From: Malacoraja senta
Taxonomy: Eukaryota
NCBI GenBank assembly: GCA_038087875.1
Contig: CM075987.1
Coordinates: 16,928,001 to 16,992,000 of the forward strand
Length of the DNA: 64,000 bases
Direction: 5' to 3'
Below are positions 1-53,733 of the stretch, in pieces. Position numbers and translations under genes: made by a program. Within the stretch, counting starts at the first letter, position 1. Each line of letters begins with the position of its first letter. Below the pieces are notes generated by a model. The model was not told the DNA's origin and made no database searches. It saw only the letters and a list, made by a program, of their open reading frames with translations.

Positions 1-137
1 ATGTTCCCCCGTAAACAGAACACCTCCCATTTCCTGAGATGAGAGATGTACTGCTTTTTGGTACTATCCCTCCAGGCCGCTGTTATCACATCCACGGTAC
101 GATCGGATAGTCCAAGACCCAGGTATGGCCTCCTCAG
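1..137 (-). CDS. N-terminus of DIRS tyrosine recombinase ORF (partial, not in ORF track)
   Basis: Manual translation LRRPYLGLGLSDRTVDVITAAWRDSTKKQYISHLRKWEVFCLRGN resembles the start of the DIRS YR core-binding domain and overlaps the end of the MT ORF. Confidence 0.7.
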   Translation of the reverse strand, partial: MRRPYLGLGLSDRTVDVITAAWRDSTKKQYISHLRKWEVFCLRGN

Positions 138-918
138 AATCTGCAAATTAACAGATTAATACGGTCATATAACGGATGTTGATCCACAGTTACATGGTGC
201 ACCAGCAGATCCCTACATTTTGAGACAGCCATTAGGGGCTGTGTTATTATCTGCAAAACGAGGGGCTGTGTAGGCCAGTCGGGTACCACCAAAATTCCTG
301 AGGCGGAGTCCTGCTTGATCTTGAGCAAGCACCGACTGATGAGGCAAAATGGGGGAAATGCATATAAAAACACTCCGCCCCAGTGTAGCGAGAATGCATC
401 TACCGCTACTGCCCCTGTGTCTGGTTCCCATGAAACATACTTCGGTAACTGGTGATTAAGTCTGGATGCAAATAAATCAATATCTGGCATCCCATATCGC
501 ACAACAATATCATTAAATACATCATGATTCAACATCCATTCTGTGTTGTCATTGAATTTGCATGACCTGGTGTCTGCCACCATGTTGAATCTACCTGATA
601 GGTAGATGGCTGACACCCAAATGTTCCTTGTAATACACCAGTGCCAAATAAGATTAGCCAATCTGTCACAAATTCCGACTTGATTCCACCCATGTGATTA
701 ACATACGCCACTGCCGTGGTGTTGTCAATCTGAAGTTGAACATGCAAGTGACGCTTAGTAGTACAATAAGCCTTAAGCCCATAAAATGCTCCCAATAGCT
801 CTAAATAGTTAATCCCATGTGAGTGAAGAATAAATGCCTCATGCAGATTCCATCTCCCTCCACAGCTGGAGATGGTATCAGTAGCACCCCCACCTAAGGC
901 ACTAACATCAGTCTGCAA
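134..918 (-). pseudogene. DIRS RNase H plus DNA N6-adenine methyltransferase-like domain (frameshifted)
   Basis: RNase H motifs 'QTDVSALGGG', 'INYLELLG' and 'DNTTAVAYVNHMGG'. MT-like motifs 'IDLFASRLNHQLPKYVSW', 'VDAFSLHW', 'YAFPPF' and 'VVPDWPTQP'. Confidence 0.85.
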
Positions 919-933
919 AACAACTGAAGGTTC

Positions 934-2134
934 CTAAACGAGAAGTTTGCTGGAGCAGCTTGAGATGTTTCTTATCCACCACTGCACTTCAGCAATAGCT
1001 TCAGCTGGTAATTGCATGGGCCTGTCGAAATGGCCTGCATGTTTCCTGAGTGCCTGTACCTTTGCACATTGCAAATTTTGGTAATGCAAAGGTCCATACT
1101 GTGCAGCTGGAAAGGAAGACACTAATTTGCCAATCAAGCTGGCCACATGTCTAATTGAAGGTTGTTGCTCCTCCGTGAGCTTGTTACAACAGCCTTCAAT
1201 TAAATCTAATCTCTTGCACCTGGGCAGAGTCACTGACATGTGAGTTGAGTTAATAATCAAGTGCTCTAACTGGTATCAATTTGGATTTAGCTGGGTGAAT
1301 GAGAAACCCCAATCGCTCAAACATGAGTTTAACAGCTGAAACAGATAATTCAGCTGCTTCCCGAGTCTTTCCTATGATTAAGATATCATCCAAATAAGCC
1401 ATTACAATATGACCCTGAACCCAGAGTAGCCCCAGTACTGGTTTTAACAGTTTTGTGAATAATCTAGGGCCCGAGGTTAGCCCATTCGGCAGTGCTTTAA
1501 ATTGCCATAATTGCCTCATCCAGCTAAACTTCAAATATCTCTGGTGACCCCTATGAACAGGCACTGAGTAATATGCATCCTTCAGTTGTATGCATGCCTT
1601 ATAACATCCTCTGGAAACCAATTGCTTGGCAGTAATAAATGTCTCCATTTTGAAATGTTTGTACTGCACAAACGGATTAAGACTAGTCAAGTCAAGGATG
1701 ATTCGACACCCACCATCCTTCTTTCGCTTAGGAAAAATATTAGATACGAATTGGTGAGGTTGATAAACCGTCTTCTCAATTATCCCTTTTTTATATAAGT
1801 TTTCAATTTCAGCTTGAACCTCCAAATTCTCTTTTTGTGAGAAAATGAGTGCCCGACTTGGTGTATGCTGTGTGGGTGGAGGCAAATTGGGAAGGAATTC
1901 AATTCGAAACCCTTGTATACTGTGCAGTACAAACGAATCTGATGTTATCCCACACCATTCCTGCAGAAACAAGTATAATCTTCCCCCAACTTGAAGGTGA
2001 CTCTCATTTAATATGTTCCAATGAGAACCAGACCCACCTACCTCCATGGTTACCGGTGTAGTTTTCTGTCCCCTGTCTCTGGTGGGATACGGCATGTTCG
2101 GCCGTGCCCCTGCTGAAGTGCGCCAGCTGCACAA
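934..2134 (-). pseudogene. DIRS reverse transcriptase (frameshifted near 1255)
   Basis: Motifs 'KKDGGCRIILDL', 'FKMET', 'LKDAYYSVPV', 'LPNGL…PRLFTK' and 'YLDDILI'. Continues in another frame as 'SLIGKL…QWW'. Confidence 0.9.
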
Positions 2135-2191
2135 ATTGAATGGCCGGCTTGGTCCTTGTACGGACCCGGTTTCAGCAAACCGCTTGTAGGG

Positions 2192-3271
2192 TTACTGCCG
2201 CCGAAGCGTTCTGCTGGCCATCGGTGCTTTGATCAGCCCAACCGTTCTTGCCTCGTCGTCCAGCTCCTTAACTCTTTTTGCGAGGTCCTCACCAAACAGC
2301 AGATTTGGTGGCTGGATATTGCTGGGCTTACACAGTGCGGCGAACTTCGGGTTGATGGTAGGTCGGATGGCGCTCTTTCTTAGACAGTTTATCTCGAAGT
2401 GCGCATTGCACATGAGGGCCAGGGCATCCTGCTGTACATCAGACAGGTGCCCTCCATCCACCGACCTGGCGTACGCTGTAATGCCCGAGGCGAGCAGCTT
2501 CAGCACCCTCTGTAGCCTTATTTCCTGGGCCCTGATGCCTACGCCCATATGACCCCAAATGGCGTGGTTCACTGTCGACACTTTGAGCAGTATACAATTA
2601 ACCGGGGTGTTGTACTTCTTGGCCGTTTCATCCATGGTAAGCTCTTGAAGTTGGTGCGAAGCCAAGTAATTAATACTTGCAGCCAACTCTTCCCCCAGCG
2701 GCTCTCCCGAATCTGTTGGGATGGCAAATCTTGCTGCCAGGAATGGTACCTCTGACTCGTGCCCTTCATCCCTTGGGGTAGCCTCCACTGTTAGACCCAC
2801 AGACTCGGCGTCAGAATAATACTGACCCGGCATGCTCTCCTTCTCGAAGAGGGAGACACTAAGCAGCCCTGATTCAGGTGCCGCTGGCGCCGGCTCTCCA
2901 ATAGGCCGGCGCTGACACAACTCCCCCTGTTGGAGTGTATCTTGGTGGAGCATCTTCTCCATTAAGAGCTCCATCCTGGATAACCTTGCAAATAAGGTAC
3001 CCATACCCGGAGGGGAACCCTCCCGGCCCGACTCGTCCGAGTCCAATGGCCGTGCAGACTTTTTGGTGGCTTTGCGCCCCAAAGGTGCAGCCACGGTGCT
3101 CTCCGAGCCCAAGTCTGCAATCGCTGGTCGTACCGCTAGCGACTCAGTAGGTGAGCTAGGCAGCCGCCCGTTACCCGCACTGCCACGGTCTTCTCTAGCT
3201 ACTCTCCCGACGGCTCGCCTTGCCTTCACCCTCGACTCTTTCTCCATACTTGAACTTGTGTCCTGTAGCAA
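2192..3271 (-). CDS. DIRS ORF1 (gag-like), 359 aa
   Basis: Open ORF directly upstream of the RT ORF. C-terminal 'RKSAIRP…LLFGEDLAKRVKE' resembles DIRS gag ends. Confidence 0.7.
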   Translation of the reverse strand: MLQDTSSSMEKESRVKARRAVGRVAREDRGSAGNGRLPSSPTESLAVRPAIADLGSESTVAAPLGRKATKKSARPLDSDESGREGSPPGMGTLFARLSRMELLMEKMLHQDTLQQGELCQRRPIGEPAPAAPESGLLSVSLFEKESMPGQYYSDAESVGLTVEATPRDEGHESEVPFLAARFAIPTDSGEPLGEELAASINYLASHQLQELTMDETAKKYNTPVNCILLKVSTVNHAIWGHMGVGIRAQEIRLQRVLKLLASGITAYARSVDGGHLSDVQQDALALMCNAHFEINCLRKSAIRPTINPKFAALCKPSNIQPPNLLFGEDLAKRVKELDDEARTVGLIKAPMASRTLRRQ

Positions 3272-3849
3272 GAATTCCCATGCGCAGAAAACGACCTCCG
3301 ACTAAGTTTTACACTTACCTGCGGCTTTTTTAACTTACCGCTGGAGGAGCGATGCACCTCCCAGCCAGTCGCTGCGCCATGCGTCAGACGTAATGACGCG
3401 CATGCGGACTGGCGGGACTTCTTCACGGAATCACTCACGTGACTCCGAAGTAAAATCTCCTATGTGGGACCTTATCAAATGCTTTCTGAAAGTCCAGGTA
3501 CACTACATCCACTGGCTCTCCCTTGTCCATTTTCCGAGTTACATCCTCAAAAAATTCCAGAAGATTAGTCAAGCATGATTTCCCCTTCATAAATCCATGC
3601 TGACTCGGACCGATCCTGTTACTGCTATCCAAATGCGTCGCTATTTCATCTTTTATAATTGACTCCAGCATCTTCCCCACCACCAGGCTAATTGGTCAGT
3701 AATTTCCTGTTTTCTCTCTCCCGCCTTTCTTAAAAAGTGGGATAACATTAGCTATCCTCCAATCCACATTAGCTACCCTCCGATCCTGAATCTATAGAAC
3801 ATTGGAAAATGATCACCAATGCATCTACTATTTCTGGAGCCACCTCCTT

Positions 3850-6800
3850 TTGTGGAAGGTGCGACCTGTACAAAAAGGATGGGTTGCACTTGAACCTGAG
3901 GGGGACCAATATCCTGGCGGGGAGATTTGCAAAGGCTACTGGGGAGACTTTAAACTAGAACGGTTGGGGGGAGGGACTCAAATAGAGAAAGCTATTAGTC
4001 AGTATGTGAGGCAGGAGGCAGAGAAGGAAAGCACTCAGACCCAACATGTAGGGGGGAAAGAAGAAAACAATAATAAACAGAGAATAAGAGGTGGTGGGGT
4101 TCTTAAATGGGTGAGCAGAGAAACAGAGGAGTGTAAAATGCGGGCAGAAGCAATAGGTAGCAAGGTGAAAAGTAAAAGTGGCAGGCAGACAAATCCAGGA
4201 CAAAAATCAAAAAGGGCCACTTTTCAACATAATTGTAAAAGGGGTAAGAGCGTTGTAAAAACAAGCCTGAAGGCTTTGTGTCTCAATGCAAGGAGCATTC
4301 GTAATAAGGTGGATGAGTTGAATGTGCAGAATGCTATTAATGATTATGATATAGTTGGGATCACGGAGACATGGCTCCAGGGTGACCAAGGCTGGGAGCT
4401 GAACATCCAGGTATATTCAATATTCAGGAGGGATAGAGAGAAAGCAAAAGGAGGTGGGGTAGCGTTGCTGGTTAGAGAGGAGATTAACGCAGTGGAAAGG
4501 AAGGACATTAGCTTGGAGGATGTGGAATCGGTATGGGTAGAGCTGCGAAACACTAAGGGGCAGAAAACGCTGGTGGGTGTTGTGTACAGGCCACCTAACA
4601 GTAGTAGTGAAGTTGGGGATGGCATCAAACAGGAAATTAGAAATGCGTGCAACAAAGGCAAAACAGTTATAATAGGTGACTTCAATCTACATATAGATTG
4701 GGTGAATCAAATTGGCAGGGGTGCTGAAGAAGAGGATTTCTTGGAATGTATGCGGGATAGTTATCTAAACCAACATGTAGAGGAACCAACGAGAGAGCAG
4801 GCTATTCTAGACTGGGTATTGAGTAATGAGGAAGGGTTAGTTAGCAGTCTTGTTGTGCGTGCCCCCTTGGGCAAGAGTGACCATAATATGGTTGAGTTCT
4901 TCATTAGGATGGAGAGTGACATTGTTAATTCAGAAACAATGGTTCTGAACTTACAGAAAGGTAACTTTGAGGGTATGAGACGTGAATTGGCCAAGATTGA
5001 CTGGCAATTAGTTCTAAAAGGGTTGACGGTGGATATGCAATGGAAGGCATTTAAAGACTGCATGGATGAACTACAAAAATTGTTCTTCCCAGTTTGGGAA
5101 AAGAATAAATCAGGGAAGGTAGTGCATCCGTGGATAACAAGGGAAATCAGGGATAGTATCAAAGCAAAAGATGATGCGTACAAATTAGCCAGAAAAAGCA
5201 GCATACCAGAGGACTGGGAGAAATTCAGAGACCAGCAGAGGAGGACAAAGGGCTTAATTAGGAAAGGGAAAATAGATTATGAAAGAAAACTGGCAGGGAA
5301 CATAATAACTGACTGCAAAAGTTTTTATAGATATGTGAAGAGAAAGAGATTAGTTAAAACAAATGTAGGTCCCTTGCAGTCAGATACAGGTGAATTGATC
5401 ATGGGGAACAAGGATATGGCGGACCAATTGAATAACTACTTTGGTTCCGTCTTCACTAAGGAAGACATAAATTATCTGCCGGAAATAGCAGGGGACCGCG
5501 GGTCAAAAGAGATGGAGGAACTGAGTGAAATCCAGGTTAGTCGGGAAGTAGTGTTGGGTAAATTGAATGGATTAAAGGCTGATAAATCACCAGGGCCAGA
5601 TAGGCTGCATCCCAGAGTACTTAAGGAAGTAGCTCCAGAAATAGTGGATGCATTAGTGATAATTTTTCAAAACTCTTTAGATTCTGGAGTAGTTCCTGAG
5701 GATTGGAGGGTAGCAAACGTAACCCCAATTTTTAAGAAGGGAGGGAGAGAGAAAACGGGGAATTACTGACCAGTTAGTCTAACATCGGTAGTGGGGAAAC
5801 TGCTAGAGTCAGTTATTAAAGATGGGATAGCAGCACATTTGGAAAGTCGTGAAATCATTGGACAAAGTCAGCATGGATTTACAAAAGGTAAATCATGTCT
5901 GACGAATCTTATAGAATTTTTCGAGGATGTAACTAGTAGAGTGGATAGGGGAGAACCAGTGGATGTGTTGTATCTGGACTTTCAGAAGGCTTTCGACAAG
6001 GTCCCACATAAGAGATTAATATACAAACTTAAAGCACACGGTATTGGGGGTTCAGTATTGATGTGGATAGAGAACTGGCTGGCAAACAGGAAGCAAAGAG
6101 TAGGAGTAAATGGGTCCTTTTCACAATGGCCGGCAGTGACTAGTGGGGTACCACAAGGCTCAGTGCTGGGACCCCAGCTATTTACAATTTATATTAATGA
6201 ACTGGATGTGGGAATTGAAGGCAACATCTCCAAGTTTGCGGATGACACTAAGCTGGGGGGCAGTGTTAGCTGTGAGGAGGATGCTAGGGGACTGCAAGGT
6301 GACTTAGATAGGCTGGGTGAGTGGGCAAATGTTTGGCAGGTGCAGTATAATGTGGATAAATGTGAGGTTATCCACTTTGGTGGCAAAAACAGGAAAGCAG
6401 ACTATTATCTAAATGGTGGCCGATTAGGAAAAGGGGAGATGCAGCGAGACCTGGGTGTCATGGTACACCAGTCATTGAAAGTAGGCAGGTACACAAAAAT
6501 GCTGGAGAAACTCAGCGGATGCAGCAGCATCTATGGAGCGAAGGAAATAGGTAACGTTTCGGGCCGAAACCCTTCTAACCCTTGAAAGTAGGCATGCAGG
6601 TGCAGCAGGCAGTGAAGAAAGCGAATGGTATGTTAGCTTTCATACCAAAAGGATTTGAGTATAGGAGCTGGGAGGTTCTACTGCAGTTGTACAGGGTCTT
6701 GGTGAGACCACACCTGGAGTATTGCGTACAGTTTTGGTCTCCAAATCTGAGGAAGGACATTATAGCCATAGCGGGAGTGCAGAGAAGGTTCACCAGACTG

Positions 6801-7273
6801 ATTCCTGGGATGTCAGGACTTTCATATGAAGAAAGACTGGATAGACTCGGCTTATACTTGCTAGAATTTAGGAGATTGAGAGGGGATCTTATAGAAACTT
6901 ACAAGATTCTTATGGGGTTGGACAGGCTAGATGCAGGAAGATTGTTCCCGATGTTGGGGAAGTCCAGGACAAGGGGTCACAGGTTAAGGATAAGGGGGAA
7001 ATCCTTTAAGACTGAGATGAGAAAAAACTTTTTCACACAGAGAGTGGTGAATCTCTGGAACTCTCTGCCACAGAGGGTAGTTGAGGCCAGTTCATTGGCT
7101 ATATTTAAGAGGGTGTTAGATGTGGCCCTTGTGGCTAAAGGGATCAGGGGGTATGGAGAGAAGGCAGGTACGGGATACTGAGTTGGATGATCAGCCATGA
7201 TCATATTGAATGGCGGTGCAGGCTCGAAGGGCCGAATGGCCTACTCCTGCACCTATTTTCTATGTATCTATGT
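3850..7273 (+). mobile_element. CR1 LINE 'A', 5'-truncated (end of ORF1 + complete ORF2 APE-EN/RT + 3' tail); inactivated by a stop at 5767-5769 and an insertion at 6488-6581
   Basis: APE motifs 'ITETWL', 'GDFN' and 'SDH'. RT motifs '[10 protein letters not shown]' and 'FADD'. Short-repeat tail ttctatgtatctatgt. Confidence 0.95.
6488..6581 (-). mobile_element. 94-bp Penelope-terminal-repeat-derived insertion with 13-bp TSD
   Basis: TSD ttgaaagtaggca at 6475-6487 and 6582-6594. The empty site is present in the duplicated copy near 22935-22950. Confidence 0.85.
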
Positions 7274-13100: not shown

Positions 13101-14456
13101 TTAAGACCGAGATGAGGAAAAACTTTTTCACACAGAGAGTGGTGAATCTCTGGAACTCTCTGCCACAGAGGGTAGTTGAGGCCAGTTCATTGGCTATATT
13201 TAAGAGGGAATTAGATGTGGCCCTTGTGGCTAAAGGGATCAGGGGGTATGGAGAGAAGGCAGGTACGGGATACTGAGTTGAATGATCAGCCATGATCGTA
13301 TTGAATGGCGGTGCAGGCTCGAAGGGGCGAATGGCCTACTCCTGCACCTATTTTCTATGTATCTATGTATCTATATCGATTCCACATCCTCCAAGCTAAT
13401 GTCCTTCATTTCTATTGCGTTAATCTGCTCTCTAACCAGCAACACTACCCCACCTCCTTTCCCTTTCTGTCTATCCCTCCTGAATATTGAATATCCCTGG
13501 ATGTTCAGCTCCCAGCCTTGGTTACTCTGGAGCCATGTCTCCGTGATCCCAACTATATCATAGTCATTAATAGCTATCTGCACATTCAACTCATCCACCT
13601 TATTACGAATGCTCCTTGCATTGAGACACAAAACCTTCAGGCTTGTTTTTACAACACTCTTACCCCTTATACAATTATGTAGAAAAGTGGCCCTTTTTGA
13701 TTTTTGCCCTGGATTTGTCTGCCTGCCACTTTTACTTTTCACCTTGCTACCTATTGCTTCTACCCTCATTTTACACCCCTCTGTCTCTACGCTCACACAT
13801 TTAAGAAACCCTTTCCCTTTAACTCCATCCTCAACTATCCCATTCGACACCCCACCCCCCTTATTCAGTTTAAAACCACCCGTGTAGCAGTGGCAAACCT
13901 GCCTGCCAGAATGCTGGTCCCCCACCTGTTAAGATGCAATCCGTCCCTTTTGTACAGTTCCCTTTTACTCCAAAACAGATCCCAGTGATCTAAGAATCTA
14001 AATCCCTGCCCCGTGCACCAGTTCCTCAGCCACACATTCAGGTCCCGTATCTCCCTGTTCCTGCTCTCGCCAGCACGAGGAACTGGAAGCAAACCGGAGA
14101 TAACAACCCTGGAGGTCCTGCTTTTCAGCATTTTTCCGAGCTCTCTAAACTCACGCTGCAGAATATTCATACCCTTCTTTCCGACATCGTTTGTGCCGAC
14201 ATGCACTACCACTTCCGGCTATTCACCTTCGCCCTTGAGGATTTTCTGCACTCTGTCCGTGACATCCTGGATCCTGGCACCAGGAAGGCAGCACACCATC
14301 CTCGAATCCCGTCTGTTGCCGCAGAAACCCCTGTCCGTACCTCTCACAGTGGAGTCTCCCACTACAATGGCGTTGCCTGACTTTGGCCTTTTTGGTTTTG
14401 GCTCAACAGCCCTATTCGCATCGCAAGCCAGTCTGCCGCTCAGTGTTAAAACGTCT
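10110..14456 (-). mobile_element. CR1 LINE 'B' (ORF1 esterase part + ORF2 + tail), frameshifted and interrupted
   Basis: ORF1 SGNH-esterase motifs 'GDS', 'HVGTND' and 'DGLHLN'. ORF2 EN/RT motifs present. (tttctatg)n tail at ~10110-10130. Confidence 0.95.
12750..13372 (+). mobile_element. 5'-truncated CR1 inserted antisense into CR1-B (left arm only)
   Basis: RT C-terminus and tail. 4-bp TSD atat (12746-12749, 13373-13376). Empty site gaatcgatatgggtag at ~17331-17346. Confidence 0.9.
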
Positions 14457-25989: not shown

Positions 25990-27350
25990 GGATCCCACTC
26001 CCCTGTCACTCTAGTTTAACTCATCCCATGTAGCACTAGTGAACCTCCCTGCAAGGATATTGATTCCCCTTCAGTTCTGGTGCAACCCATTCCTCTTATA
26101 CAGGTCACCTCTGCCCCAGAAGACATCCCAATGGTCCAAAAATTTGAGGCCCTGCCTCTTGCACCAACTCCTCACCCATGCTTTGCTCTGTCCTATCCTC
26201 TTCCTACTAGAATTGGCAGCAGGAGCAATCTAGAGATGACTATCCTTGATCCTGCTTTTTAACCATTTATATATCTTCCTGTATTCACTCTGCCAGCTCT
26301 CAGCACTTTTCACACCTATGTAATTTGTGCAAATGCACAATGACACTGGCTCCTCACCCTTCCCCCTTGAGAATGTTCTATGGCAACTTGGAGACTTGCT
26401 GGATCCTGCACCAGGGACACAACACAACGCCATGTTTGCTGCCATAGAATCTCCCGCCTGGCACCCTAAATAATGGGTCTCCTATCACTATCACTCTGCC
26501 TGGCCATGCCTCAGAATCAGGCCCGACGCCACAGGCCTGACTGCTGCCATCACCGGACAGGGCATTCCCTCCACCAGTATCCAAATAGGTAGGGCTGTTG
26601 TCAAGAGGAATGGTCACAGGGGATTCCTGCACACGCTGCCTATTTCCATTCCTGGTGGTTGCCCATCTACACCCTCCCTGCAACAAGAGCATGACCACCG
26701 TTATTGGCAGAGCACTGCCTGACGGCACCAGTAACCCAGGTTCAATCCTAACTGGATGCTTCGCATGTTCCCCCTGAAGTCAGGTGGGCTTTCCTTCAGG
26801 TGCTTTGGTTTCCTCCCACGTCCCAGGTTAATTGGCCTCTGTAAATGGCCCCTAATATGTAGGGAGTGGATGAGCAAGGGGATAACATAGAACAAGTGTA
26901 AATAGGTGATTGATGGTCGGTGTGGACTCGGTAGGCTAAAGGCCTGTTTCCATGCTGTCTCCTTAAACTAAACTAAAATCTCACAGGACCTCTTAGCTAT
27001 GACACTCTCACGTCGTTGGCTGAGCCTGAGGTCAGCCCGTAGCAGTTCTAGTTCCCTAATGCCGTCTGTAAGGAGCGGCAGCCAGATGCACTTCCCACCG
27101 TAGTGCACAAGGACACGGACTGTCTTCCAAACCCCACATCCTGCAGGAGGAGCAGTGCACCATTCTACCTGCCATCTCTACTGCACTGACCACTAATACA
27201 CTGAGAAAAATTATAGACACAAAAACAACCTGTCGTCACCCTCTGCTCAACCACCTCGCCAAAGCCTCAACACTTACCTTCAAACGCAGCAGTTCACCTC
27301 TACGCACAGCCACTCCCAAAGCAGCTGTTCCCAAGTCTCAACACAGCTAC
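25990..27350 (-). mobile_element. Degraded CR1 5'UTR + ORF1 with a SINE insertion (~26700-26980)
   Basis: Remnants 'VIGDPL' and 'CCVPGA', Cys-rich N-terminus, degenerate gagttaaactag at the ORF1 end. Confidence 0.65.
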
Positions 27351-48680: not shown

Positions 48681-49248
48681 AGCCGTTTTTTCCAGCATCT
48701 ACAGTTCCTTCTTAAACACAGGGAATTATAGACCAGTAAGCCTGACATTGGTGGTGGGGAAGATGCTGGAGTCAATCATAAAATATCAAATAGCGGCACA
48801 TTTGGATAGCAGTAGCAGGATCGGTCCGAGTCAGCATGGATTTACGAAGGGGAAATCATGCTTGACTAATCTTCTGGAATTTTTTGAAGATGTAACTAGG
48901 GAAATGGACAAGGGAGAGCCAGTGGATGTAGTGTGCCTGGACTTTCAAAAAGCATTTGATAAGGTCCCACATAGGAGATTAGTGAGAAAAATTAGGGCAC
49001 ATGGTATTGGGGGTAGAGTGCTGACATGGATAGAAAATTGGTTGGCAGACAGGAAACAAAGAGTAGGGTTTAACGGGTCCCTTTCAGAATGGCAGGCAGT
49101 GACTAGTGGGGTACCGCAAGGCTCGGTGCTGGGACTGCAGCTATTTACAATGTACATCAATGATTTAGATGAAGGGATTACAAGTAACATTAGCAAATTT
49201 GCAGATGACACAAAGCTGGGTGGCAGTGTGAACTGTTAAGAGGATGCT

Positions 49249-50089
49249 CCGCATTGATGAGCTGGAGACCCAACTTCATACGCTGCGGTGCATCAGGGAG
49301 GGGGAGTATTACCTGGATGTTTTGTGCCAGGGGATGGTCACACCGACCAGTTTAACTAATTCAGTAGTTAGTGAGCAGGGAAAGGAAGGTGTGGCCATAA
49401 GCGAGGCAGGTAGGGGGAACCAGGAGGAGATGCGGCAGGAGCCACAGCCCTTGTCCCTGACGAGCATGACCGAGGCTCTTACTCAATGCGAGGACGGGAT
49501 CAAGGGCTGTGGGAGGGATGAGCAACCTGGCTGCAGCACCGTGGATCAGGGGGCCATTCAAGAGGGGGGAGTTAGAAGAAATGCCGTTGTGATAGGGGAT
49601 AGTATTATTCGGGGGGTAGATAAGGTTCTCTGCGGCCAGCAGAACATGTCCCGAAGGCTGTGTTGCCTACCCGGTGCTAGGGTTAAGGATATCTCTGCGA
49701 TGCTGGAGAGAAATTTGCAGAGTGAGGGGGAGGATCCAGTGGTCGTGGTCCATGTGGGGACCAATGACATAGGAAGGACGAGGAAGGAGGATCTGCTGAA
49801 CGAGTTTGAGCAGTTAGGGAATAAATTAAAAAGCAGAACCTCGAGGGTACTGATCTCCGGATTGCTACCTGAGCCACGGGCCAAATCGGCGAGGGTACAA
49901 AAAATTAAAAAGCTGAATGCGTGGCTCAAAGACTGGTGTGGGAAAAATGGGTTTGGTTTCTTGGGCCACTGGCACCAGTACTGGGACAGGGGGGATCTGT
50001 TCTGTAAGGACGGACTTCACCTGAACGGTGCTGGGACTGGGGTCCTGGCAAATCATATAACTAGGGCAGTAGAGAGGTCTTTAAACTAA
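49249..50089 (+). CDS. CR1 ORF1 (partial; coiled coil + SGNH esterase domain)
   Basis: 'VIGDSIIR', 'CLPGA', 'HVGTNDI' and 'DGLHLN'. No internal stops. Confidence 0.88.
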
Positions 50090-50178
50090 GTAGCGGGGGG
50101 GAGGTATCAAGGGGGGTAATAACGGCAGGGGTAGAGGAAATAGAGCAGGGTATCAGTGGGGAAACGGAAAATCAAAAT

Positions 50179-53073
50179 GTGACAGGAGGATCCAGAATGT
50201 GTGAAGATAAAGCTCTAGATGTAAAAGGGGCAAAAACAGAAAGGAAGGGTAGTAAAAATCATCTGAAAGTACTGTATCTAAATGCACGGAGTATTCGAAA
50301 TAAGATAAATGAATTAACGGTGCAATTAAGTACATATAGTTATGATATCGTGGCCATTACGGAGACATGGCTGCAAGGGGATCAGGATTGGGAGTTAAAT
50401 ATAGAGGGGTACTCGACAATTAGAAAAGATAGACAGGAAAGAAAGGGAGGAGGGGTGGCCCTTTTAATAAGGGAGGGAATAACGGCAATAGAGAGGAAGG
50501 ATATTGCGTTGAAGGATCAGGATAGTGAAACAGCTTGGATACAGATAGAGAATAACAAGGGGAAAAAAACACTAGTGGGTGTAATTTATAGACCTCCAAA
50601 TAGCTGTGACGCTGTTAGTCAGAACATAAATCTGCAAATAGTTGACGCATGTAAAAAGGGAACTGCTGTAATCATGGGGGACTTCAATTTTCATATTAAT
50701 TGGGCAAACCAAACTGGGCAGGGTAGACTAGAGGAAGAGTTTATAGAATGTATTAGAGACGGGTTCCTAGAACAGTATGTCACAGAACCGACAAGGGGGG
50801 AGGCAATCTTGGATCTGGTCCTGTGTAATGAAGCAGGATTAATTAAAAATGTCATAGTTAGGGACTCGTTGGGAACAAGTGACCACAATATGGTCGAATT
50901 CCATATTCAAATAGAAGGGGAGCAGGTTGAAACTCAGGCTAGGGTACTTAGTCTAAATAAGGGGGATTATGAAGGTATGAGGACTGAGCTGATCAAAGTT
51001 GACTGGGATAGCAGACTCAAGAATAAGACGGTACATGAGCAGTGGTGTACGTTTAAGGATCTACTGTATAACCTTCAAGAAAAATTTATTCCTATGAAGA
51101 AAAAAAGGGGTAAGGGAAAGAACAGTCAGCCATGGCTCAGTAAAACTATAAAGGATAGTATTCGGCTGAAGGCAAGGGCATATAAGGTAGCTAGAGATAG
51201 TGGGAGGGTAGAGGATTGGGAAGCATTTAAAGGTCAGCAAAAAATAACTAAGAGATTAATTAAGACGGGGAAAATAGACTATGAAAGGAATTTAGCGAAC
51301 AACATAAAAACTAATAGTAAGAGTTTTTATAGCTATATAAAAAGAAAAAGGGTGGCTAAGGTGAACGTTGGTCCATTGGAGGGTGAGACTGGAGAGTTGT
51401 TGGTGGGGAACATGGAAATGGCAAAGGCATTAAACGAGTATTTTGTATCAGTCTTCACCATAGAAGACACAAAAAATATTCCAACGCTGGATAAACAGGG
51501 GGCGGTAGGAATGGAGGAGCTAAATACTATTAAGATCACCAAGGAGGTGGTATTAGGGAAATTAATGAGACTGAAGGAGGATAAATCCCCTGGGCCTGAT
51601 GGATTACATCCAAGGGTCTTGAGGGAGATAGCGGTGGGGATTGTGGATGCATTGGTGATAATTTTCCAAAACTCCCTGGAGGCAGGAACGGTCCCAGTGG
51701 ATTGGAAAATGGCCAATGTAACACCTATATTTAAAAAAGGAAGTAAACAGAAGGCGGGTAACTATAGACCGGTTAGTCTAACATCGGTGGTGGGTAAAAT
51801 GTTAGAGACAATTATTAAAGAAACACTAACGGGGCACTTGGATAAACATGACTTCATCGGACAGAACCAGCATGGTTTTGTGAAGGGGAAGTCCTGTTTA
51901 ACGAATCTGCTCGAATTCTTTGAGGAAGTAACAACCCGGGTGGATAAAGGGGAACCGGTGGATGTGGTATACTTGGACTTCCAAAAGGCTTTTGACAAGG
52001 TGCCACATAAGAGACTATTGCTAAAAATAAAAAATTATGGGATTGGGGGTAATATATTAGCATGGGTAGAGGATTGGCTAACAAATAGGAAGCAGAGAGT
52101 GGGGATAAATGGTTCATACTCGGGATGGCAACCGGTAACTAGCGGGGTTCCGCAAGGGTCGGTGCTGGGACCCCAGTTGTTCACAATTTATATAAATGAT
52201 TTGGAGGAGGGAACCAAGTGTAATATATCAAAATTTGCGGACGATACAAAAATGGGAGGAAAAGTAGGGGATGAGGAGGATAGGAAGAGTCTGCAAAAGG
52301 ATATAGATAAGCTAGGTGAGTGGGCAACAACTTGGCAGATGAAATTTAATACTAATAAATGTGAAGTCATTCACTTTGGGAAAAAAAATGATAGGGCAAG
52401 TTATTTTCTAAATGAGGTGGAGCTGCGTTGTAATGCAATGCAAAGGGATCTAGGGGTAGTAGTACATGAATCACTAAAAGTTAGTATGCAGGTGCAGCAA
52501 GCAATCAGGAAGGCCAATGGAGTTTTGGCCTTTATTGCTAGGGGGATTGAGTATAAAAACACGGAGGTCTTGCTGCAGCTGTACACAGTATTAGTGAGAC
52601 CACATTTGGAATACTGTGTACAGTTCTGGGGTCCATACTTAAGAAAGGATGTACTGGCCCTGGAGGCAGTGCAGCGAAGGTTTACAAGATTAATTCCTGC
52701 AATGAGGGGATTGACATATGAGGAAAGGTTAAGTAGGCTGGAACTCTACTCTTTGGAGTTTAGAAGAATGAGAGGCGATCTCATTGAAACATATAAGATC
52801 GTGAGGGGCCTTGATCGGGTGGATGCACCGAGGATGTTCCCAATGATCGGGGAAACTAGAACTAGGGGACATAGTTGTAGAATAAGAGGGGGCTCTTTTA
52901 AAACTGAGATGAGGAACAACTTCTTCACCCAGAGGGTGGTTAATTTATGGAATTCACTGCCCCAGGGAGCAGTGGAAGCAGAAACATTAAATATATTTAA
53001 GTCTAAAATAGATGTTTTTTTAGCTGCCAAGGGGATAAGGGGCTACGGGGAGAGGGCAGGGATATGGACCTAG
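50179..53073 (+). CDS. CR1 ORF2 APE endonuclease / reverse transcriptase, 964 aa, uninterrupted (frame open from 50065)
   Basis: 'YLNARS', 'ITETWL', 'YRPP', 'GDFN', 'SDH', 'NYRPVSLTS', 'DFQKAFD', '[10 protein letters not shown]' and 'FADD'. Confidence 0.96.
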   Translation: MTGGSRMCEDKALDVKGAKTERKGSKNHLKVLYLNARSIRNKINELTVQLSTYSYDIVAITETWLQGDQDWELNIEGYSTIRKDRQERKGGGVALLIREGITAIERKDIALKDQDSETAWIQIENNKGKKTLVGVIYRPPNSCDAVSQNINLQIVDACKKGTAVIMGDFNFHINWANQTGQGRLEEEFIECIRDGFLEQYVTEPTRGEAILDLVLCNEAGLIKNVIVRDSLGTSDHNMVEFHIQIEGEQVETQARVLSLNKGDYEGMRTELIKVDWDSRLKNKTVHEQWCTFKDLLYNLQEKFIPMKKKRGKGKNSQPWLSKTIKDSIRLKARAYKVARDSGRVEDWEAFKGQQKITKRLIKTGKIDYERNLANNIKTNSKSFYSYIKRKRVAKVNVGPLEGETGELLVGNMEMAKALNEYFVSVFTIEDTKNIPTLDKQGAVGMEELNTIKITKEVVLGKLMRLKEDKSPGPDGLHPRVLREIAVGIVDALVIIFQNSLEAGTVPVDWKMANVTPIFKKGSKQKAGNYRPVSLTSVVGKMLETIIKETLTGHLDKHDFIGQNQHGFVKGKSCLTNLLEFFEEVTTRVDKGEPVDVVYLDFQKAFDKVPHKRLLLKIKNYGIGGNILAWVEDWLTNRKQRVGINGSYSGWQPVTSGVPQGSVLGPQLFTIYINDLEEGTKCNISKFADDTKMGGKVGDEEDRKSLQKDIDKLGEWATTWQMKFNTNKCEVIHFGKKNDRASYFLNEVELRCNAMQRDLGVVVHESLKVSMQVQQAIRKANGVLAFIARGIEYKNTEVLLQLYTVLVRPHLEYCVQFWGPYLRKDVLALEAVQRRFTRLIPAMRGLTYEERLSRLELYSLEFRRMRGDLIETYKIVRGLDRVDAPRMFPMIGETRTRGHSCRIRGGSFKTEMRNNFFTQRVVNLWNSLPQGAVEAETLNIFKSKIDVFLAAKGIRGYGERAGIWT

Positions 53074-53733
53074 GTATGGTTAGTATAGTAAGACCTGAGT
53101 GATCTCCTGGACAAGTGTCGATCGCCTGGATTGGGGTCGGAGAGGAATTTCCCGGATTTTTTTCCCGAATTGGACCTGGGTTTTTATCCGGTTTTTTGCC
53201 TCCCCCAGGAGATCACACGGTTCTTGGGGTGGAGAGGGGTGATAGCGATATAAAGGGGAGGGTAGTGTCTTGTGTTCTGTGTCTTGTGTCTACTGTTTGT
53301 GGGTAAGGGTGTCTGTTTAGTGTTCAGCCATGAGCGAATGGCGGTGCGGGCTCGATGGGCCTAGTGGTCTACTCTCGCACCTACTTTCTATGTTTCTATG
53401 CTATGAGGATGCAGGGTGACTTGGACAGGTTGGGTTAGTGGGCAGATGCATGGCAGATGTAGTTTAATGTGGATAAATGTGAGGTTATCCACTTTGGTGG
53501 CAAAAACAGGAAGGTAGATTATTATCTAAATAGTCAAGTTGGGAAAAGGGGAAGTACAATGTGATCTGGGGGTCCTTGTTCATCAGTCAATGAAAGTAAG
53601 CATGCAGGTACAGCAGGCAGTGAAGAAAGCGAATGGGATGTTGGCCTTTATAACAAGAGGAGTTGAGTATAGGAGCAAAGAGGTCCTTCTGCAGTTGTAC
53701 AGAGCCGTAGTGAGACCACACCTGGAATATTGT

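Follow-up and report, generated by a model that had tools for sequence, protein, structure and literature searches.

This work concerns a window of 64,000 nucleotides (nt) of Malacoraja senta DNA (assembly GCA_038087875.1, contig CM075987.1, positions 16,928,001 to 16,992,000 of the forward strand), which carries copies of CR1, a clade of long interspersed nuclear elements (LINEs). By comparing the junctions between the two open reading frames of these elements (ORF1 and ORF2), we propose that ORF2 is expressed by a -1 programmed ribosomal frameshift giving an ORF1-ORF2 fusion protein, a reading to which we assign a probability of about 0.75. The junction combines three features of frameshift sites: i) a heptamer of the form X_XXY_YYZ in phase with ORF1, ii) a -1 ORF that is open across the heptamer and coding, and iii) a heptamer that is conserved or replaced by another one in relatives. 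With respect to a stimulator 5-9 nt downstream, neither a hairpin nor a canonical G-quadruplex was found; a conserved G-rich tract is located at 7-10 nt, and one distant relative has a hairpin.

In the proposed mechanism, most ribosomes translating ORF1, which encodes an accessory protein of the esterase type, would terminate at the UAG codon right after the heptamer U_UUA_AAC. A minority would slip back by one base on it while tRNA-Leu occupies the P site and tRNA-Asn the A site. The shifted ribosomes would read CUA (3955-3957), then a flexible linker of ~110 codons, and then the endonuclease and reverse transcriptase (RT) encoded by ORF2 in the -1 frame, producing an ORF1p-ORF2p fusion at a fixed low ratio according to the Gag/Gag-Pol logic of retroviruses. 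We infer the occurrence of the shift itself from the comparisons below. Its frequency may be raised by the adjacent stop codon and by the G-rich tract 7-10 nt further on, the latter acting as a non-canonical G-quadruplex or a protein-binding site. A LINE needs far less ORF2p than ORF1p, as is known for L1, and a low shift rate, such as the rates of up to ~7% in reporters, would suit an element needing little ORF2p.

The ORF1/ORF2 junction in the window

The junction at 3.9 kb belongs to a dead CR1 copy (~3847-7272, plus strand) that is truncated at its 5' end, as reads of related copies extend at ~3847 into ORF1 sequence missing from the window. A tblastn search with ORF1 C-termini identified the last ~36 codons of ORF1 (3847..3955, plus strand; ending in ...DLYKKDGLHLNLRGTNILAGRFAKATGETLN), with which the ORF1 C-terminus of a second CR1 element, located at 50 kb, can be aligned. 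In agreement with the original prediction, this remnant ends with the codons ACT (3947-3949), TTA (3950-3952) and AAC (3953-3955), the slippery heptamer T_TTA_AAC occupying 3949..3955 in the phase of ORF1, and the ORF1 stop TAG (3956..3958) follows immediately. A stop codon directly after the slip site occurs in some plant-virus signals as well. After a 10-nt spacer (3956-3965) there is a G-run, GGGGGGAGGG (3966..3975), at the distance noted earlier, which we consider a candidate stimulator.

The frame of ORF2 also behaves as previously described. The stop-to-stop frame 3790..5769, which is -1 relative to ORF1, reads ...GDFKLERLGGGTQ... through the heptamer and contains the Exo_endo_phos domain (Pfam E-value 6.6e-13). 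Its first ATG is at 4138..4140, 189 nt from where the heptamer begins, a position that varies between lineages. From the heptamer to this ATG the -1 frame contains 0 stops, compared with 6 and 5 for the other two, and it stays open into the endonuclease. The linker, counted from CTA to the codon before this ATG (3955..4137, plus strand), comprises 61 codons rich in Gly, Glu and Lys, and the endonuclease core starts at N-A-R-S-I-R-N-K (4285..4307), 336 nt from the first base of the heptamer. The ORF2 of this dead copy (3790..7181, plus strand) is split into three pieces, 3790-5769 (with TGA at 5767-5769), 5770-6585, and, after a frame change near 6580, 6579-7181, with RT motifs visible in the later pieces. 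It has the domain order of a CR1-clade ORF2, with an APE-type endonuclease followed by RT (Pfam Exo_endo_phos and RVT_1).

The 50-kb element represents a second subfamily. Its ORF1 (49232..50089, plus strand) belongs to the SGNH/GDSL esterase type (PF13472, E-value 5.3e-14) and ends with TCT TTA AAC TAA (50078-50089), including the heptamer at 50080-50086, followed by a G-run at 50095-50104. The ORF2 (50065..53073, plus strand; 1002 codons encoding endonuclease and RT) is again -1 relative to ORF1; this frame opens just five codons ahead of the heptamer, and its first in-frame ATG is at 50197. Thus, the two subfamilies share the slip site and the frame and differ in the stop codon (TAG at 3.9 kb vs TAA at 50 kb), as had been proposed. 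The further claim that their linkers are unrelated applies to most of the linker length, where the identity is 46-51%, and fails for the first ~25 nt, which are clearly shared and consist of the heptamer, the stop codon, a short spacer and the G-run. The 3.9-kb element ends in two 8-nt units, TTTCTATG TATCTATG (7257..7272), and the 50-kb element terminates in (TTTCTATG)2 at 53385-53400, so both carry an octamer-repeat 3' end instead of a poly(A) tail. An octamer repeat is named for CR1 in PMC2612034. The esterase ORF1, the APE/RT ORF2 and the octamer-repeat tail fit the assignment to CR1-clade LINEs, which is based on ORF1 type, ORF2 domains and 3' tail.

Conservation of the slip site and the linker

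The genome search was performed in the 1.94-Gb assembly that contains the window. At least 2168 candidate junction matches were obtained, of which the 40 scored are 98-100% identical. In a set of 36 junctions of the same subfamily (L001 and the window copy are the same, so that one junction enters twice), 35 retain the heptamer, 35 have the endonuclease motif 336 or 333 nt from the heptamer, a multiple of 3, and 31 have no stop in the -1 frame. This alignment of subfamily copies, which the original prediction had called for, agrees with it on both the heptamer and the open frame. Since these copies are young and ~98% identical, their conservation reflects the form of the active master element and says little about selection.

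More informative is the comparison of lineages. These were sampled independently of the junction with the endonuclease pattern N-A-R-S-I-R-N-K (9403 genome matches, 0 for the reversed control) and with a variant of it skipping the dominant subfamily (1557 genome matches), and additionally by tblastn with ORF1 C-termini over 332 kb of fetched DNA. In the resulting lineages ORF1 ends with ACT TTA AAC TAG (the 3.9-kb lineage), TCT TTA AAC TAA (the 50-kb lineage), GTT TTA AAC TGA (a third lineage, found also in the window at 13865..13877 on the minus strand, with the heptamer at 13874-13868) and GGT TTA AAC TAA (two sub-lineages), and in single copies with GAT TTA AAC, where the stop is lost, GCT TTA AAA TAA, and GGT TTA AAT TGA. 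The last is an old copy with a divergent endonuclease (L105). It is the one usable CR1 junction from six places fetched with a Leu variant of the endonuclease pattern (37 matches vs 3 in the control); the other places were excluded as too decayed or as chance matches.

All three stop codons, TAG, TGA and TAA, are found directly after the heptamer, and the codon before TTA can be ACT, GTT, GGT, TCT, GAT, AGT or GCT, with T at the third position throughout. Among six lineage representatives, the identity in this codon is 4/6, 3/6 and 6/6 at positions 1, 2 and 3, respectively, and farther upstream in ORF1 just 3 of 14 third positions are invariant. The residue preceding Leu-Asn thus varies freely between Thr, Val, Gly, Ser, Asp and Ala while the silent base does not. 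The Leu codon is always TTA, and the Asn codon is almost always AAC, with AAA and AAT found once each in its place. In the element's own codon usage, TTA accounts for 21% of Leu codons, AAC for 34% of Asn codons, and T for 21% of four-fold sites, so that x-Leu-Asn would be written as T TTA AAC at an expected rate of ~1.5%. The retention of T across lineages while positions 1 and 2 of its codon change supports the proposed selection at the RNA level on the T before TTA AAC.

An old decayed copy in the window (26011..26022, minus strand) has GAG TTA AAC TAG, with G replacing T. Among 20 of its relatives (80-86% identical), T is present in 17, as GGT in 11, GAT in three, GTT in two and AGT in one, and the full heptamer in 14; therefore, G is a private change of the 26-kb copy. 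One locus of the same genome, L048, carries two TTTAAACTAA plus G-run modules 95 nt apart, at 199 and 104 nt upstream of the endonuclease motif, which suggests an internal duplication of the slip-site region.

The linker is evidently coding in the -1 frame, judging from its phase and from the distribution of stops. In the four lineages the endonuclease motif lies 336, 252, 204 and 201 nt from the heptamer, each a multiple of 3. The mean numbers of linker stops in the -1, 0 and +1 frames are 0.2, 10.2 and 10.5 for the 336-nt lineage (n = 36), 0.9, 9.7 and 9.7 for the 252-nt lineage (n = 9, with two loci overlapping on one copy), 0.4, 8.6 and 6.1 for the 204-nt lineage (n = 9), and 1.6, 5.0 and 5.6 for the 201-nt lineage (n = 15 old copies with indels, four of which keep the right phase and zero stops together). 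In mononucleotide shuffles, the probability of a stop-free frame from the heptamer to the first ATG is 0.012, 0.057, 0.007 and 0.10 for the four lineages. The linkers of three lineages are 46-51% identical to each other and mutually unalignable, so that their stop-free frames approximate independent trials.

These observations bear on the possibility that the heptamer and the open frame are functionless and simply inherited, the purine-rich, T-poor linker being open by its composition. In the window, TTTAAAC as such occurs 15 times vs 10.1 expected, a number reached by nine of 100 shuffles, and as it is not rare the weight rests on its position, phase and conservation; the T content of the linkers is just 14-23%, and the lineages share ancestry within one genome. 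Composition and ancestry would leave unexplained why the other two linker frames average 5-10 stops, why the linker length always changes by multiples of 3, why the codon before TTA changed repeatedly at positions 1-2 and never at 3, and why the distant relatives described below have unrelated heptamers at this place and in this phase. We consider this explanation very improbable.

Another way to express ORF2 is reinitiation after termination, or some other internal start, for which either an ATG further on or a non-AUG codon close to the stop would serve; the heptamer would then be no more than the codons of a conserved C-terminal Leu-Asn. The first in-frame ATG is located 189, 105, 201 and 117 nt after the heptamer in the 336-, 252-, 204- and 201-nt lineages, respectively, so that three of the four, with their ATG at 105-189 nt, offer a start upstream of the endonuclease. 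In the 204-nt lineage, just one in-frame ATG is shared by the copies, and it immediately precedes the codon for the conserved Asn of the endonuclease core (...KVLYMNARS...). Its Met corresponds to Leu in the other lineages; starting there would remove the first strand of the endonuclease fold, and the expression of ORF2 in this lineage therefore cannot rest on the ATG. Even so, the lineage has multiplied, providing most of the matches listed for the 1557-match pattern.

Further evidence from the junction argues against reinitiation. There is no ATG within 45 nt of the ORF1 stop, and with the first in-frame ATG 105-201 nt downstream there is no overlap of stop and start codons. In the window copy three out-of-frame ATGs (4004, 4046 and 4107) precede the in-frame one, the ATG at 4004 having G in most related copies. 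An internal start would also leave unexplained the invariant silent T, the fixed TTA and AAC, the open in-frame stretch leading to the ATG, and the alternative in-phase heptamers of distant relatives. In favor of reinitiation, a review of non-LTR (lacking long terminal repeats) retrotransposon protein biogenesis (PMC3894237) lists the SART1 UAAUG signal among the known options and calls ORF2 initiation an open question. On balance, we regard reinitiation as unlikely, though clearly ahead of the preceding explanation. The -1 frameshift is in addition supported by the narrow window left for the shift: in two lineages the -1 frame opens just five codons before the heptamer, and no ATG in the -1 frame was present upstream of the heptamer in the copies read.

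Sequencing runs from at least eight related organisms hold parts of the junction stretch. Four of them were compared with positions 3842-4400 at a likeness of at least 92%: raw reads of polyA RNA from one organism (H) and contigs from three others (F, C and G). At positions 3938-3960, no variant reaching 10% is among those listed, with 19 further variants of lesser support outside the list; therefore, the heptamer and the stop codon appear uniform in the organisms compared. Between 137 and 208 RNA reads of organism H per strand class cover the bins with the heptamer and the stop. The CR1 family is thus transcribed in this organism, the RNA reads bearing on transcription alone and not on translation. 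In an RNA run from a related organism (X23), ~140 reads share only the 38-nt piece 4072-4109, with other sequence on both sides and an endonuclease start directly 3' of it, which suggests that this organism has a subfamily in which the linker is rearranged and much shorter.

The same reads address the idea that RNA polymerase slippage or editing at T/A or G runs shifts a part of the transcripts into one frame. Homopolymer runs (TTT, AAA and G6-G7) are present at the junction, but across 3842-4400 no inserted or deleted letters were seen at 10% of reads or more in the four runs, including the polyA RNA, a smaller share going unlisted; and slippage at the G-run could not join the frames because the G-run follows the ORF1 stop. 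This explanation seems to us the least probable of those considered.

Distant relatives and the downstream G-run

To sample more distant relatives, metagenome contigs were scanned with an alignment of four natural endonuclease fragments, the loci being chosen through the peptide patterns NARSIRNK and [GAR]ITETWLQ, which are blind to the junction. The scan produced 80 loci with 25-48% identity in the endonuclease; 72 of them have at least 300 nt upstream, and 28 of the latter have an upstream ORF of at least 100 aa. The frame of ORF2 relative to this ORF is -1 in 26 and +1 in two cases. The two ORFs overlap by 1-150 nt in 15 loci (807 nt in total), several of these elements being intact, with both ORFs open to the locus end, and in-phase slippery heptamers are found in 10 of the 15. 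The total is 13 in-phase heptamers, against ~0.5 expected in 807 nt with uniform bases, vs two out-of-phase ones, both located in loci that have an in-phase heptamer too.

The heptamers differ from the one in the window. A_AAU_UUU is combined with U_UUU_UUA in L117, L152 and L121; U_UUU_UUA alone is found in L131 and L147, G_GGA_AAC in L124 (directly before TAG) and L137, C_CCA_AAU in L158 (directly before TAA), A_AAA_AAC in L116, and U_UUU_UUG in L144. Such an exchange of slippery heptamers at one site is classically taken, in comparative work, as a signature of programmed frameshifting. All four loci with an ORF1 similar to esterases (L121 and L124 above the Pfam cut-off, L117 and L131 below it) have a heptamer, and in six loci (L124, L158, L137, L142, L116 and L162) there is either no ATG before the endonuclease core or just one inside it. 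In L124, at ~1150-1210, G_GGA_AAC and TAG are followed 8 nt further on by an 8-bp hairpin (AUCCGAAG/CUUCGGAU; z = -4.7), a textbook-looking frameshift cassette in an intact LINE with an esterase ORF1. The ORF1 of L137 (2-517) contains an OTU-like cysteine protease domain (PF02338, E-value 6e-08) and no esterase or RRM domain, and the in-phase G_GGA_AAC of this locus lies inside a 43-nt ORF1/ORF2 overlap.

Some relatives provide points in favor of reinitiation instead. An ORF1 of the L1 type (Transposase_22) is present in L136, above the cut-off, and in L140, just below it; these two loci have no heptamer and an ORF2 that starts with ATG, and a start with ATG is seen in five metagenome relatives with an ORF1 of this type or similar. 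In L168 (~1130-1145) there is no slippery heptamer, and the ORF1 stop overlaps two ATGs in the frame of ORF2 (ATGA type); part of this LINE group therefore seems to rely on stop/start coupling.

The G-run (GGGGGG, one other base and GGG, or similar) is located 7-10 nt after the heptamer in every lineage of the genome. Its G4Hunter score is 1.3-2.2 in the four main lineages and sub-lineages, most of them exceeding the 99th percentile of ORF2 windows (1.40), and 0.9-1.4 in old decayed copies. Both junctions, at 3.9 kb and 50 kb, had 0 matches in Rfam at E-values up to 1. In reporters, UUUAAAC with a G-quadruplex 5-8 nt later gives up to ~7% of -1 frameshifting vs 0.4% without it, with an optimum at 6-8 nt, according to PMC3919603, and the CR1 spacing of 7-10 nt is close to this optimum.

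Several results weigh against a programmed -1 frameshift in these elements. No lineage has a canonical four-tract G-quadruplex motif, just two-tetrad or long-loop versions; no stable hairpin or pseudoknot was predicted by ViennaRNA in 60, 90 and 130 nt of five representatives (z from -1.7 to +1.8); and a duplex scan over 700 nt found no conserved pairing partner for the G-run. The G-run may be plain Gly-Gly coding, because GGG is the commonest Gly codon of the element (67 of 147). An in-frame ATG upstream of the endonuclease is, as described above, available in three of the four lineages, and five of the 15 metagenome relatives with overlapping ORFs lack a heptamer. The heptamer conservation is in part shared ancestry, because all the U_UUA_AAC lineages come from one genome and close relatives. 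Finally, the 20 linker variants listed for related organisms give no signal of constraint on the linker peptide at the amino acid level, with five silent vs 15 replacement changes in the -1 frame and 5:14 and 4:15 in the other frames, and although none of them creates a -1 stop, only 1.2 such stops would be expected. A linker that is held open and in phase while its sequence is free is as expected for a flexible tether. When the first 110 residues of ORF2 were searched against a protein database, just two matches were returned, one of them starting at ATG, a result uninformative for other species.

The comparative data suggest that the frameshift reading may extend to the whole group of LINEs. 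In this broader form, -1 frameshifting would be the general and ancient ORF2 route of LINEs with an esterase ORF1 (the CR1/L2 group), ORF2p would be made solely as a fusion, whereby the ratio of the two proteins would be fixed as in Gag:Gag-Pol, and the stimulator in the present lineages would not be a hairpin; instead, the adjacent stop would act together with the G-rich tract, which would either form a natural G-quadruplex or bind a protein. We put this extension forward tentatively, as having slightly less than an even chance.

Three further observations concern other elements in the window. The minus-strand junction of the third lineage (13600-13877) was compared with positions 3949-4307 of the plus strand: the endonuclease-proximal ~150 nt of the linker are almost identical, and the two differ in how ORF1 ends, in the stop codon and over the earlier part of the linker, with linkers of 252 and 336 nt, respectively, and 78% identity overall. 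This looks like a modular exchange between ORF1 and ORF2 parts of the two lineages. The same minus-strand copy contains a plus-strand CR1 3' end, TTTCTATG TATCTATG, at 13352-13367, which therefore marks a nested insertion and agrees with the break of the endonuclease frame at ~13374. A different retroelement occupies 134-3301 on the minus strand, with ORFs of 369, 313, 113, 134 and 187 codons that include an RT-like stretch with YLDDILI.

Comparison with known systems

The translation of the second ORF of a LINE, whose RNA is capped and bicistronic, has long posed an unanswered question. Elements of the CR1 group are the main retrotransposons of many vertebrate genomes, and the CR1/L2 group is common in invertebrates too. 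If the frameshift reading is true, the slip site would provide a concrete, testable mechanism, predicting an ORF1p-ORF2p fusion and ribonucleoproteins with a make-up unlike that of L1. It would also explain why annotated ORF2s often have no sensible start codon and allow annotators to define ORF2 properly. The cellular frameshift sites of vertebrates would gain a large class, which may have an unusual stimulator rich in G.

In the papers that could be searched, which do not include older work on chicken and turtle CR1 and on insect jockey-type elements, we found no description of a frameshift signal in CR1, no vertebrate CR1 case and no similar comparative evidence. In the portions of text available, the word 'frameshift' is absent from the 2013 review of non-LTR protein biogenesis (PMC3894237); 'frameshift', 'overlap', 'slippery' and 'stop codon' from the 2026 survey of the CR1 group (PMC13343379); and 'frameshift' and 'overlap' from PMC4120745 on the ORF1 of the Jockey superfamily. 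The accessible parts of PMC2734521, PMC3905857, PMC4255032 and PMC13405545 added nothing on CR1 frameshifting.

Among non-LTR elements, overlapping ORFs in -1 register are an old observation for insect jockey-type LINEs. These, together with Drosophila HeT-A and TART, belong to the same broad superfamily as CR1, and frameshifting has been stated or suspected for them; HeT-A, unlike CR1, shifts within gag and has no RT. HeT-A and TART are the only non-LTR elements named in the available portion of the recoding review PMC5009743. A likeness exists also to SART1 and L1, where a second ORF on a capped bicistronic RNA must be translated as well. Human L1 solves this by unconventional reinitiation of ORF2. 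For SART1, PMC3894237 describes a UAAUG stop/start coupling. In both systems ORF2p is free and no slippery site is needed, whereas CR1 has no AUG at the stop and its -1 frame is open and in phase from the heptamer onwards.

The heptamer of the window is identical to the U_UUA_AAC of the coronavirus ORF1a/1b signal, which works well in vertebrate cells and is named in PMC3919603. The coronavirus signal has a strong pseudoknot and high efficiency, while CR1 has a 0-frame stop directly after the heptamer and then only a G-rich tract. The synthetic reporters combining UUUAAAC with a G-quadruplex in the same source share with CR1 the heptamer and a G-rich element a few nt downstream. The reporters contain four clean G3 tracts, in contrast to one long G-run and scattered G2-G4 tracts without a canonical motif in CR1, where the folding is putative.

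The organization proposed here is shared with the Gag/Gag-Pol signals and the domesticated gene PEG10. Known heptamers of this kind are U_UUU_UUA in HIV-1 and G_GGA_AAC in PEG10. The -1 frameshifting of retroviruses, LTR retrotransposons and PEG10 is reviewed in PMC5009743. In contrast to the Gag/Gag-Pol elements, CR1 is a non-LTR element, its ORF1 is of the esterase type and not a capsid, its lineages in this genome have no hairpin or pseudoknot, and between slip site and enzyme it has a long linker free of constraint. As in Gag/Gag-Pol and PEG10, an X_XXY_YYZ heptamer stands at the end of the first ORF, the RT ORF follows in the -1 frame with a short overlap, a fusion at a fixed low ratio is predicted, and both U_UUU_UUA and G_GGA_AAC recur in the metagenome relatives of CR1.

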